A stretch of 64,000 nt of DNA, taken from IMG/VR virus record IMGVR_UViG_2721755651_000007, one strand, 5' to 3'. The stretch's first letter is position 1; the number at the start of each line of letters is the position of its first letter. Positions 3,150-53,245 of this stretch are shown here, in pieces. The translations under genes were made by a program, and so were the position numbers. Source of the stretch: a virus (Duplodnaviria > Heunggongvirae > Uroviricota > Caudoviricetes). The notes below the pieces were generated by a model. It was not told the origin of the DNA and did no database searches. It was given only the letters and a program-made list of their open reading frames with translations.

Positions 3150-3494
3150 TTACTTTAATAATTTCAGTGCCTTTACATCAACTTCAACACTGCTCAGGTC
3201 TTTATCAATTTCACCCTCAATTCTTACTTTGTCTTTCGGAGAAACATTCTGCCCGGCCCATACGCTGTCATCAATATCCGTGACAATTGTCCCGCTATTG
3301 TCACGAAACTCATAACGTTCATCACCCACTTTTTTAACGATGCTCCCTTCAAGGATAACCCATGCATCATCCTTCAGTTCTTTTGCCTGCGCTACTGTTG
3401 AACGCTCTGCTTCTGGCCCCTGGAAACCACCCTGCTGTGCAAAAGCGCCAAAAGACACACCGGAAATAAGTGCTGCAATCAATACCTTTTTCAT
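3150..3494 (-). CDS. YgiW/YdeI-family periplasmic OB-fold (BOF) protein, prophage cargo
   Basis: Signal peptide MKKVLIAALISGVSFGAFA; QGGFQGP...V.L.G.I.......F.D.SG.I.V.ID pattern typical of YgiW family. Confidence 0.7.
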   Translation of the reverse strand: MKKVLIAALISGVSFGAFAQQGGFQGPEAERSTVAQAKELKDDAWVILEGSIVKKVGDERYEFRDNSGTIVTDIDDSVWAGQNVSPKDKVRIEGEIDKDLSSVEVDVKALKLLK

Positions 3495-3613
3495 TCATAG
3501 TCCTCTTTCAGAGATGAACATTCAAACAGCATTTTCAGTATGGTAAAGCGCGGGTGCGTTGAGGATGCCTGACACATCAGAGGTGGCGGGAGATTACTCC
3601 CCCGCCTGGTCTC

Positions 3614-3769
3614 TTACTTCTCAGATTCGTAGTCTACGAAGACAGCGACCTCCGTCTGACCGGTTCGGATTCGCACCTCGCAGAGGTCTTTCCTCGTTAC
3701 CAGTGCCGTCACTATGACGGTTAAACAGATGACGATCAGGGCGATTAACATCGCCTTTTGCTGCTTCAT
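3614..3769 (-). CDS. hok: Hok-family type I toxin (HokD/RelF-like), with overlapping mok frame extending to 3826
   Basis: MKQQKAMLIALIVICLTVIVTALVTRKDLCEVRIRTGQTEVAVF matches Hok/Gef family; longer overlapping ORF 3614..3826 = mok-like. Confidence 0.9.
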   Translation of the reverse strand: MKQQKAMLIALIVICLTVIVTALVTRKDLCEVRIRTGQTEVAVFVDYESEK

Positions 3770-4059
3770 AGCCTGCTTCTCCTTGCCTTTCGGCACGTAA
3801 GAGGCTAACCTACATGTGTTCAGCATGGATTGAGCCTCAGATTAATGTTAAGCGTCTTGCAGGACGCGTAATGTTAACTGGGGCTTTTCTCTATCTGCCG
3901 TTGGTGTTCATGCCCGAGGCAGATAGCCTCAAGCACCCGCAGCAATTCTACTTAACTATCCTTTTCCCGCAAACCGTTTTTATCCCCAGCGGCAAATCGA
4001 ATACACCACCAGCGCCACCGCCATCGCAATTCCTACCGTTGTGAATGCTTCAGGCCAGG

Positions 4060-5598: not shown

Positions 5599-6489
5599 TC
5601 AGGCTGCCAGATCATCGTTTCCGATGGAAGCATAATAAGCTTTTTCTGCTTCTGCCGGAGGAGTATGGCCCAGCCTTCCCAGCAATCGTCGATTGTTATA
5701 CCAGTCCACCCACGTTAGTGTGGCCAGTTCCACTTCTGCACGGTTTTTCCAGCTCTTACGGTGTATTACCTCCGCTTTGTAAAGACCATTGATGCTCTCA
5801 GCCATCGCGTTGTCATACGAGTCGCCTGTACTCCCTGTTGATGCCAGTAATCCGGCTTCTTTTAGTCGCTCCGTATAGGCCAGTGACACATACTGAGAGC
5901 CTTTATCGCTGTGATGGATGGTGCCAGACGGACGACGGGCCCACAACGCCTGCTCCAGCGCATCCAGCACGAATGTCGTTTCCATAGACGATGAGACCCG
6001 CCACCCCACGATGTATCCGGCAAACACATCAATGATAAACGCCACATAGACGAAGCCCTGCCATGTGCTGACGTAAGTAAAATCAGCCACCCACAGCTGG
6101 TCAGGTCGTTCTGCCACGAACTGACGGTTTACGCGGTCGCCTGCGGCAACGGCTTTCCGGCTGATGGTCGTACGGACCTTTTTACCCCGGAGAACACCGG
6201 CAAGTCCCATAACCGCCATGAGACGTGCCACTGTACATCTGGCCACCCTGATTCCTTCCCGTAACAACTGACGCCAGACTTTACGCACACCGTACACCTG
6301 ATGATTTTCATCGTATACGCGCTGTATCTCTCTCTTCAGCCAGTCGTCGTGCTGCGCACGGGCACTGCGTTTATCCGGATGATGTCGCTGTTGCTGACAA
6401 TGGTAATACGTTGACGGGGCAATATGCAGTTCGCTGCATACCGGTCCGACCCCGTACTGCTCACGCAGCTTATCCAGCAGTGGCATCAT
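5599..6489 (-). CDS. IS3-family transposase OrfB (DDE integrase domain)
   Basis: 296 aa; WVADFTYV...HSDKGSQY...YDNAMAES motifs. Confidence 0.9.
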
Positions 6490-6812
6490 TTTTTCCAGAG
6501 GCGGTCGAACTCCGCCTTCGCAAAATAAGCGGAAGCCTGGCGAAGGATATCGTTACTGCGGCGCAGTTCACGATTTTCACGTTCCAGCTCTTTCAGACGC
6601 TGACGTTCAGCGCTGGTGAGCCCACCATCACCGCCCCCGGTATCCCGCTCATGCTGGCGAACCCAGACACGCAGAGTCTCCGGCGTACAGCCAATCTTTG
6701 GGGCAATGGAACAAATTGCCGCCCACTGTGAGTCATATTCATCCTGACTTTCCAGAACCATACGAATCGCCCGCTGACGGACTTCGGGGGAAAAACGAGT
6801 ATTTTTAGTCAT
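6486..6812 (-). CDS. IS3-family transposase OrfA (HTH)
   Basis: 108 aa; overlaps orfB as expected for -1 frameshift fusion. Confidence 0.9.
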
Positions 6813-6866
6813 CCTGTTTACCTCTTTCTCAGGGAGTTTAGTCTCCAGGATTTCCGGGGCGGTTCA

Positions 6867-7087
6867 AATTTTCTGGCAATTTCCCTTCTTTGCATGCCTC
6901 TCTGATGCAGTTGCCGCGCCAGCTCAATATCACGCTGAGAATATTTTGCCGACGGGTGAAAATCACCACGTAACATCATGCTGATGCCCAGCTCCCGTGC
7001 CTTCGTTCTCACTGCCGCTTCAGTTCGTCCGATAAGTGCGCCAACGCTTTTTACCTTCATCGTTCCCGCACACTGCCGGAGTATCAT
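6867..7087 (-). pseudogene. small HTH-like gene interrupted by the IS insertion (3' end at 5497..5556)
   Basis: Frame MKVKSVGALIGRTEAAVRTKARELGI...REIARK runs into IS end; joining flanks across the target duplication restores an ORF ending just before 5496. Confidence 0.5.
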
Positions 7088-52486: not shown

Positions 52487-53245
52487 TCAAGTGCCTTTCC
52501 TGGTCCAGCCATATTTTTTGAATGCAGGCGCCGCTTCATCGGTTTGTAGCCATTCTGCAAATCGACGGGTTTCATCATTTGCATCCTGACGTACTGTAAT
52601 GTTCATATCACGCCATATCACGTAGTCTGGCGCTATTTCCACGACATCACCAATTTCTGGATTACTGGCTGCCCAGTCAGCCCAGGTTATCCAGACATCT
52701 GCTCCAGGCTGATTCTCAAGAGCCTTACGTGCAGTTCCGCTATTGGGCGCATATAAAATAATATTTTTTCGGATTGCGGCGACAGTTTCTATATTCCCTT
52801 TACGTCCGGCAATATCTTCCCAGACGCCAGTGCCTGATGTATTACTGGTACCACCACCATCATTAACAATTACGCCAATCCCAGGTCTGGTCAGGTCGTC
52901 AATACTCCGGATATTTTTAGGATTACCTTTCTTTACCAGTAAAATACTTTTTCGCAGATAAAGAGGCTGAATATCTTTTTCACTGAAGCTGTCTTTATGG
53001 TCCCGAATGATAGCCAGAGCAGATTGTTCTGATGCGCCAAACAAGATATCTGCATTTTTTTTGGCATCTTCATTCCATTTGTTCTGTGGGCCGTAATGAA
53101 CGTTCACTATAATACCTGTTTTTTCGGCATAAAGTTTGGCTGCATCAAGCAAGGCTGTATGCGGGCCACCAGGACCATACAGATTGATATCAGCATAAGC
53201 AGCAGAAGACAGGAATATTAAAAAACCTGCCATTATGTTCCTCAT
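52487..53245 (-). CDS. orphan ModA/WtpA-like periplasmic anion-binding protein, prophage cargo
   Basis: Signal peptide; PBP type II pattern resembling ModA (...ADILFGASEQ..., ...AAPAFKKYGW...); no adjacent permease/ATPase. Confidence 0.5.
   Translation of the reverse strand: MRNIMAGFLIFLSSAAYADINLYGPGGPHTALLDAAKLYAEKTGIIVNVHYGPQNKWNEDAKKNADILFGASEQSALAIIRDHKDSFSEKDIQPLYLRKSILLVKKGNPKNIRSIDDLTRPGIGVIVNDGGGTSNTSGTGVWEDIAGRKGNIETVAAIRKNIILYAPNSGTARKALENQPGADVWITWADWAASNPEIGDVVEIAPDYVIWRDMNITVRQDANDETRRFAEWLQTDEAAPAFKKYGWTRKGT

Follow-up and report, generated by a model that had tools for sequence, protein, structure and literature searches.

Two hok loci in the window

The window analysed here, a stretch of 64,000 nucleotides, contains two genes of the Hok/Gef family on the minus strand, referred to below as copy 1 and copy 2, which score 81.1 and 77.2 bits against the Pfam family PF01848 (cut-off 22 bits). 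In both copies the hok frame is contained within a longer, in-frame mok reading frame, an arrangement seen in 42 of the 68 loci examined, and GAGG stands 8 nt upstream of each mok start (Table 1). Translation from either mok AUG would yield a 70-residue, N-terminally extended Hok. A tblastn search of the window for more hok copies returned just these two, and a covariance model of the 5' hairpin (see below), run over the whole window, gave one further weak, chance-level match at 40632-40691 (17.4 bits, E 0.08).

Each of the two hok regions has 100% matches in hundreds of O157/O121 genomes, and those in strain 319 are separated by 48.4 kb, the same spacing as in the window. We are therefore highly confident that the window is a segment of an E. 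coli O157:H7-type chromosome carrying two lambdoid prophages, each with one complete hok/mok/sok type I toxin-antitoxin module. RefSeq names copy 1 'Hok/Gef family protein' and copy 2 'hokD', and its annotation of both loci consists of the Hok ORFs only, without mok, the Sok RNA or the mRNA elements.

In both hok ORFs the Tyr47 codon TAC is followed by G (TACG; 3628-3631 and 52010-52013, minus strand). It matches the motif at which A-to-I editing by TadA is reported to recode Tyr to Cys in the hokB, hokC, hokD and hokE mRNAs (bioRxiv 10.1101/2025.08.07.668861), and by the same motif RNA editing may be needed for the second cysteine of both toxins.

Table 1. Coordinates of the two hok/mok/sok modules and of other prophage-borne RNA genes in the window. 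Positions written "to" in descending order follow the minus-strand RNA.
Feature	Position	Strand	Description	Basis
Copy 1 hok promoter (predicted)	3945-3972	-	-35 TTGCGG, 3972 to 3967; 16-nt spacer; -10 TAGAAT, 3950 to 3945	Read from sequence
Copy 1 tac	3927-3938	-	hok mRNA 5' end, GGGUGCUUGAGG	Start of RF01794 match; folds
Copy 1 repeat as RNA (tac-stem core)	3891-3926	-	5' arm CUAUCUGCC, 3926 to 3918; 18-nt loop; 3' arm GGCAGAUAG, 3899 to 3891	Sequence, covariation, fold
Copy 1 ucb / anti-SD	3880-3886	-	AAGCCCC	Folds; role by homology to R1 (PMC9841398)
Copy 1 mok SD	3835-3838	-	GAGG, 8 nt before the mok AUG at 3826	Sequence
Copy 1 mok ORF	3614-3826	-	70 aa, in frame with and containing hok	ORF list; mokW in 933W, same relative coordinates
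Copy 1 hok ORF	3614-3769	-	51 aa, identical to HokW; SD AGGAG 3779-3783	PF01848; 933W hokW annotation
Copy 1 3' UTR stem-loop	3585-3606	-	GC-rich	Folds
Copy 1 fbi	3550-3564	-	CCUCAACGCACCC + GC; complement of the mRNA 5' end (about 375 nt upstream)
Copy 1 Sok promoter	3783-3811	+	-35 TTGCCT, 3783-3788; 17-nt spacer ending GTAAGAGGC; -10 TAACCT, 3806-3811	Register conservation; element mutated in PMC8621323
Copy 1 Sok RNA	3818-3888	+	71 nt: 14-nt single-stranded 5' tail over the mok start codon, long stem-loop, UUUU	933W sokW misc_RNA maps here
Copy 2 hok promoter (predicted)	52305-52332	-	-35 TTGCTG, 52332 to 52327; -10 TAGGAT, 52310 to 52305	Copy 1 register
Copy 2 tac and repeat arms	52251-52298	-	tac 52298 to 52287; arms 52286 to 52278 and 52259 to 52251
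Copy 2 ucb / anti-SD	52240-52246	-	AAGCCCC
Copy 2 mok ORF	51996-52208	-	70 aa, in frame with hok; mok SD GAGG 52216-52219
Copy 2 hok ORF	51996-52151	-	51 aa, HokD in RefSeq; one residue different from K-12 HokD	PF01848
Copy 2 3' UTR stem-loop and fbi	51934-51988	-	Stem-loop 51967-51988; fbi 51934-51946, reaching 51931
Copy 2 hok mRNA intrinsic terminator	51900-51927	-	7-bp stem + T run, directly 3' of fbi
Copy 2 Sok promoter (predicted)	52165-52193	+	-35 TTGACC, 52165-52170; 17-nt spacer; -10 CAATCT, 52188-52193	As in K-12 sokC and 11 other loci
Copy 2 Sok RNA (predicted)	~52200-52250	+	~50 nt: 11-12 nt 5' tail over the mok AUG, stem-loop, U run	Register with K-12 sokC and 933W sokW
DicF	12461-12512	+	75 bits
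AgvB	46911-46970	+	56.6 bits against a cut-off of 56, borderline
STnc100	46972-47180	-	175 bits
tRNA genes (two)	47293-47366, 47450-47522	-

The hok mRNA and its leader

A TAnnAT hexamer that ends 6 nt before a GGG or GGC start recurs in almost all of about 60 homologous loci; upstream of it the sequence diverges. This conservation supports the inferred start of hok transcription, which in copy 1 would lie at 3938, perhaps up to 3940. A generic promoter scan missed the copy 1 hok promoter because of its weak -35 element. The first-pass annotation had placed conserved leaders at 3840-3960 and 52230-52330; leaders are indeed present, but these ranges take in promoter and flanking sequence, and the transcribed leaders run from 3938 to 3770 and from 52298 to 52152 (minus strand).

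The same annotation had proposed that the leaders fit the folded elements of hok mRNA, and comparison with the fold model agrees. The Rfam family RF01794 ('sok', gathering score 59) matches over its full length at 3764-3938 (113.5 bits) and 52149-52298 (103.9 bits) on the minus strand, and tac/fbi, the tac-stem and ucb are predicted in both copies. RF01794 is built in the hok sense, as a 157-nt leader that ends at the hok AUG, and it matches the hok strand in R1-type plasmid loci; in K-12 (L089 302-454) and in phage 933W (L003 1765-1939) it falls on the strand opposite the annotated sokC and sokW. Therefore, its minus-strand matches in the window do not contradict a Sok RNA on the plus strand, and automated annotation from RF01794 would put Sok on the wrong strand.

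Downstream of hok, each copy has a stem-loop in the 3' UTR followed by fbi. The terminal stem of the R1 mRNA shields the processed, truncated message (PMC9841398), and the copy 1 stem-loop is its counterpart. No recognisable intrinsic terminator follows fbi in copy 1 (3480-3550), and the same is true of 933W, so read-through of the copy 1 hok mRNA past fbi is possible. A ygiW-like ORF (3150-3494) begins about 55 nt beyond the copy 1 fbi.

The 9-bp inverted repeat

An inverted repeat in both hok leaders had been noted at first pass, and we find it at 3891-3899 (CTATCTGCC) and 3918-3926 (GGCAGATAG) in copy 1 and, with identical arms, at 52251-52259 and 52278-52286 in copy 2. It had been described as long-range, which does not hold: the arms are just 18 nt apart in both copies, and the repeat is therefore a local hairpin. 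The real long-range element is the tac/fbi pairing, which had gone unnamed. Perfect inverted repeats of 8-9 nt link 3550-3557 to 3933-3940 in copy 1 (375 nt apart) and 51931-51939 to 52293-52301 in copy 2 (353 nt apart). The local repeat is the core of the tac-stem near the 5' end of the minus-strand hok mRNA. In copy 1 it starts 3 nt past the Sok T run, outside Sok, and lengthens imperfectly to 20-nt arms (3880-3899/3918-3937, 75% complementary).

Taken alone, a 9-bp repeat is not rare. The window holds 54 perfect 9-bp inverted repeats with loops of 3-40 nt, against about 9.5 in mononucleotide shuffles, and we rejected the significance of the repeat on its own; a functional case must therefore rest on context and conservation. 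What gives the repeat significance is its position, its duplication and its covariation in 56 distinct homologues.

For the comparative test, 79 loci encoding Hok relatives were fetched from species-representative genomes, of genera that include Escherichia, Shigella, Kluyvera, Citrobacter, Photorhabdus, Pantoea, Enterobacter, Buttiauxella and Leclercia; some record titles name unrelated taxa. A covariance model of the 5' hairpin, seeded with both window copies and two R1-type plasmid loci, found the hairpin in 72 places across 82 sources, all on the hok strand and most about 90-170 nt before the hok AUG. No leader match was obtained for the plasmid hok genes linked to RelBE (L007, L008) or for L006, and these were omitted from the comparison. 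With pairs counted in an alignment fitted to the model, 97.7% of cells in the hairpin are paired across 56 distinct sequences, versus 39-57% in slid controls, and five pairs show double changes; within the repeat helix, 97% of cells are paired across the 56 leaders and four of the nine pairs have changed at both positions, as where A-U has become U-A in 17-18 sequences. On all five measures the observed value exceeded that of every shuffle. U-G occurs at three pairs, in 16, 9 and 31 of the 56 sequences by the same alignment, and pairs of this kind fit only an RNA of the hok-sense strand. An independent RNAalifold analysis of four MAFFT-aligned leaders returned the same helix and the same compensatory pair.

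The tac/fbi pairing also covaries. In nearly all loci the sequence complementary to tac lies 41-57 nt beyond the stop codon of hok, and the two partners change together between lineages (GGGUGCUUGAGG/CCUCAACGCACCC, GGGCGCUUGAGA/UCUCAAGCGCCC, GGGUGCCUGAGG/CUCAGGCGCCC and GGCGCUU/AAGCGCC), with compensatory forms such as GGGUGC.../...GCACCC, GGGCGC.../...GCGCCC and GGGUGCC.../...GGCGCCC.

Predicted folds of the hok mRNA

The extreme 5' end (GGGUGCUUGAGG) has three alternative partners: a local metastable sequence, fbi and ucb. For the first 54 nt alone, the predicted minimum-energy fold is a metastable hairpin (-19 kcal/mol) in which tac pairs with GCCUCGGGCA; it consumes part of the 5' arm of the repeat and excludes the repeat. 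Over the first 61 nt, the predicted repeat stem is lengthened by tac/ucb pairing (GGG.GCUU with AAGCCCC; -28.5 kcal/mol, z about -4.5). In full-length folds of both copies (z -6.7 and -6.3) the repeat is formed and tac is paired with fbi (CCUCAACGCACCC at 3552-3564 and 51934-51946), each with a pair probability of 1.0, and ucb pairs with the mok Shine-Dalgarno sequence, whose mean unpaired probability in copy 1 is 0.25. The folds thus suggest, by analogy with R1, that the copy 1 ucb partners either the mok SD in a closed form or tac (GCUU..GGG) in an open form.

The expectation that loss of fbi opens both mRNAs was not borne out, as only copy 2 flips in the minimum-energy fold. In silico removal of fbi switched copy 2 to tac/ucb (P 0.87), whereas copy 1 retained the closed, metastable form (tac/ucb P 0.03), its open form being 1.6 kcal/mol less stable, a difference within model error.

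Copy 1 carries a palindromic apical extension of about 20 nt (3850-3870, GCGTC TTGCAG GACGC) on the Sok/sokT hairpin that is absent in copy 2. It is kept in Escherichia and Kluyvera loci, with changes that look compensatory by eye, for example ACGTC...GACGT in L033. In the fold model the extension makes the ucb/SD hairpin much more stable, and it may be the reason that the truncated copy 1 mRNA is predicted to stay closed.

Antisense Sok RNA

The first-pass annotation had also suggested a Sok-like antisense RNA on the plus strand and, as a check, a plus-strand promoter and terminator. A generic scan for sigma-70 promoters and terminators found neither on the plus strand in either region, but promoter hexamers in conserved register and a stem followed by a T run are present in both copies. 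The hexamers are weak (TTGCCT/TAACCT and TTGACC/CAATCT) and the stems imperfect. The negative scan is not evidence of absence, because the experimentally defined -10 element of sokW, TAACCT, itself fails the thresholds of the scanner.

The Sok layout stands in one register in about 60 distinct loci: a -35 hexamer (TTGCCT, TTGCGC or TTGACC), a 17-nt spacer ending GTAAGAGGC, and a -10 hexamer, followed downstream by a variable tail of 10-15 nt, a stem of the form GCCUC...GGGGC and a T run. Variants of the -10 are TAATCT, TAACCT and TATCCT, with cA(C/G/A)TCT in the hokC group and in copy 2, where the element agrees with the consensus at A2 and T6 only. The copy 1 Sok is predicted to fold into an interrupted stem of 25 bp (-30 kcal/mol, z -5.0) with its T run at 3885-3888, and the predicted copy 2 Sok has a fold of -18.7 kcal/mol (z -4.0). 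For copy 1 the antisense RNA is more than a prediction, since at a 99% identical locus the transcript has been seen by northern blot and its promoter disrupted by a -10 mutation (PMC8621323); the absence of both had been named at first pass as grounds for giving up the idea.

Each Sok is fully complementary to its own leader only. The longest run of complementarity across copies is 10 nt, and the duplex of the Sok 5' tail is worth about -10 kcal/mol across copies versus about -24 kcal/mol for each cognate pair. The Sok/sokT cassettes of the two copies are unrelated, whereas tac, the repeat, ucb and fbi are identical and hok is near-identical. Given so little cross-complementarity, the two modules are probably insulated from each other.

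Relation to characterized hok/sok systems

Copy 1 is essentially the published hokW-sokW. It is identical at 496 of 501 bases to hokW/mokW/sokW of phage 933W (GenBank AF125520) and Sakai prophage Sp5, with the same Hok and Mok proteins, repeat, tac, ucb, fbi and Sok promoter. All five substitutions fall outside the ORFs: three lie in or upstream of the hok promoter region, one at 3861 in the apical loop of Sok/sokT and one at 3606 at the base of the 3' stem-loop. The immediate neighbourhood is alike as well, with a ygiW-like gene downstream and a gene in the same position upstream (DUF551 here, L0139 in 933W). Beyond the ygiW-like gene, however, the copy 1 prophage has a small hypothetical ORF, DUF968, RusA and, nearby, IS1203, whereas 933W has L0134/L0135.

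[quoted passage not shown] 2021, PMC8621323). In Sp5, HokW proved toxic and was neutralised by sokW transcribed from the native sokW promoter; mutation of the sokW -10 abolishes protection and unleashes HokW toxicity. The first-pass suggestion of a functional toxin locus is thus supported for copy 1 by a locus 99% identical to it. Both hokW and sokW RNAs were detected by northern blot in that study, along with shorter hokW RNAs. After mitomycin C, sokW is lost and HokW appears in a RecA-dependent manner; deletion of the locus halves phage release, and hokW-sokW is reported to approximately double release after induction (PMC8621323). All primers and probes of that study map to copy 1, exactly except for YO-352, which has a single mismatch. 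The northern probe YO-592 is an exact match to 3818-3847 and hybridises to plus-strand RNA, and primer YO-421, used for the 'pro-less' construct, maps to the -10 TAACCT at 3806-3811 with four designed mismatches.

The hok/mok/sok (parB) system of plasmid R1 and its F-plasmid relatives have in common with the window copies the order of elements, the three tac pairings and the Rfam family. The R1 Sok promoter (TTGCGC, 17 nt, TATCCT) shares their layout and register. However, R1-type Hok is only 42-44% identical to the window Hok, the R1 mok is in a different frame from hok, the loop of the R1 tac-stem is 18 nt longer, and its Sok stem and 5' tail show no sequence relationship to those of the window. 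The setting also differs, being plasmid maintenance in R1 and a prophage here.

Copy 2 has affinities with two K-12 loci. With hokC (gef)/mokC/sokC it has in common the Sok promoter type TTGACC, 17 nt, cAnTCT (sokC itself has CACTCT) and an in-frame mok; sokC is 59 nt long, compared to about 50 nt predicted for the copy 2 Sok. Hok proteins of the hokC group are 78-80% identical with the copy 1 protein as query. The stem of sokC differs in sequence from that of copy 2, which resembles those of Photorhabdus and Citrobacter loci. The second relative is hokD (relF) of the Qin prophage, likewise in a lambdoid prophage, which is about 99% identical to copy 2 over a stretch that starts 17 nt before the hok AUG and takes in the ORF, 3' stem, fbi and terminator. 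In K-12, however, relB-relE (with relE adjoining) replaces the whole leader, and tac, the repeat, ucb, the mok start and Sok are absent; copy 2 keeps all of them. By sequence, copy 2 is an intact, leader-bearing form of K-12 hokD with a sokC-type Sok promoter.

The system is a classical hok/mok/sok module. The main worth of the present analysis is in annotation. Biologically, both loci are further hok/sok modules in Shiga-toxin-type prophages, and they leave the understanding of hok/sok unchanged.

Proposed mechanism

That the loci are two complete hok/mok/sok modules is, in our view, very probably the correct explanation. The present analysis shows the sequence elements, how they are conserved and covary, and which folds are predicted. 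Toxin and antitoxin activity, the Sok promoter and the Sok transcript are published for a locus 99% identical to copy 1; mRNA processing and refolding, and every activity of copy 2, we infer. The R1 scheme for hok mRNA, with tac/fbi closed and tac/ucb open forms, a metastable nascent hairpin and a protective 3' stem, has been re-validated by mutational scanning (PMC9841398), and our folding predictions agree with it.

By homology to R1, tac would pair during transcription with the sequence just downstream, in a metastable hairpin that cannot coexist with the repeat. Once the mRNA is full-length, the repeat would form, tac/fbi would stack on it, and ucb would sequester the mok SD, giving a closed message that is stable, untranslatable and not bound by Sok. 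Slow 3' trimming would strip fbi and allow tac to pair with ucb, lengthening the repeat into the full tac-stem. This open form would free the mok ribosome-binding region, both for translation of mok with coupled translation of hok and for binding of Sok. Sok itself would be a short, unstable plus-strand RNA from a promoter inside the leader, its 5' tail covering the mok start codon and its terminator stem covering the mok SD and ucb; its pairing would block mok/hok translation and lead to cleavage of the duplex. When Sok synthesis stops, the pool of stable hok mRNA would be translated and the 51-residue membrane toxin would act. In published work this is triggered by prophage induction in the case of hokW and by plasmid loss in that of R1.

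One tentative joint reading, which we think has perhaps a minor share of the probability, is that insulated, prophage-specific control has been selected and that the apical extension of copy 1 holds processed hokW mRNA closed until an induction-specific signal. If true, induction or loss of one prophage would fire its own Hok only.

Alternative explanations

One or both loci could instead be decayed relics like the hok loci of K-12, with leader and repeat kept by descent and killing or Sok control lost. The K-12 hokD is a precedent, as it retains its ORF, 3' stem, fbi and terminator but has lost its entire leader to relBE, and the chromosomal hok loci of K-12, E. coli C and ECOR24 were reported, as cited in one preprint, to be unable to mediate post-segregational killing (bioRxiv 10.1101/2025.08.07.668861). 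The Sok -10 (CAATCT) and hok -10 (TAGGAT) of copy 2 are also weak. However, every element is intact in both copies, including promoters in register, tac, the repeat, ucb, the mok SD and ORF, the hok ORF, the 3' stem, fbi and the Sok stem, and copy 1 is 99% identical to a locus proven functional. Furthermore, an active hok next to an inactive Sok would be lethal; that copy 2 is kept at 99% or more in 559 RefSeq records thus speaks for a balanced pair. We therefore regard decay as improbable, and possible for copy 2 only.

The other alternatives concern the repeat alone, and we give each of them almost no credence. Its location between the two divergently arranged promoters of the module, identical in both copies, would suit a DNA palindrome bound by a phage or host regulator of those promoters rather than an RNA stem. 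However, pairing persists in homologues through G-U/U-G wobbles on the hok-sense strand, which DNA or the opposite strand would show as A-C mismatches, and the A-U to U-A flips alter the sequence while preserving the pair. The hairpin model scores about 72 bits on the hok strand versus at most 22 bits on the opposite strand, and the loop varies freely in homologues, both in sequence and in length (14 to 36 nt); together these make an operator unlikely. The repeat might also terminate transcription, of Sok on the plus strand or of the upstream minus-strand DUF551 gene: it is a GC-containing hairpin, 3 nt past the T run of Sok and 134 nt beyond the DUF551 stop codon (gene end 4060). Against this equally far-fetched reading, no T/U run follows the repeat on either strand (plus CCTCAAGC, minus AGAAAAGCCCC), the scan called no terminator at the repeat, Sok has its own stem and a UUUU ending at 3888, and the hairpin lies downstream of the conserved -10 and start, and thus inside the hok transcript. 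An RNA stem within the hok mRNA, as part of a complete module, remains the preferred reading of the repeat.

Other features of the window

A perfect 24-bp palindrome with zero spacer and a central EcoRI site (CCGATATGGGAA/TTCCCATATCGG) is located at 52344-52367, directly upstream of the copy 2 hok promoter and exactly where the homology between copy 1 and copy 2 stops. Neither strand has a T run after it. The window contains no second copy, and in the fetched loci the palindrome is confined to the same O157 context. Immediately upstream of the copy 2 hok module in the second prophage is the gene for the AcfC-family adhesin Paa (52487-53245, minus strand). In the first prophage, the IS3-family element IS1203 is inserted at about 5600-6900 beside a truncated gene for a DNA-binding protein, and its ALIL frameshift pseudoknot was identified at 6415-6531 (minus strand, 121.5 bits).
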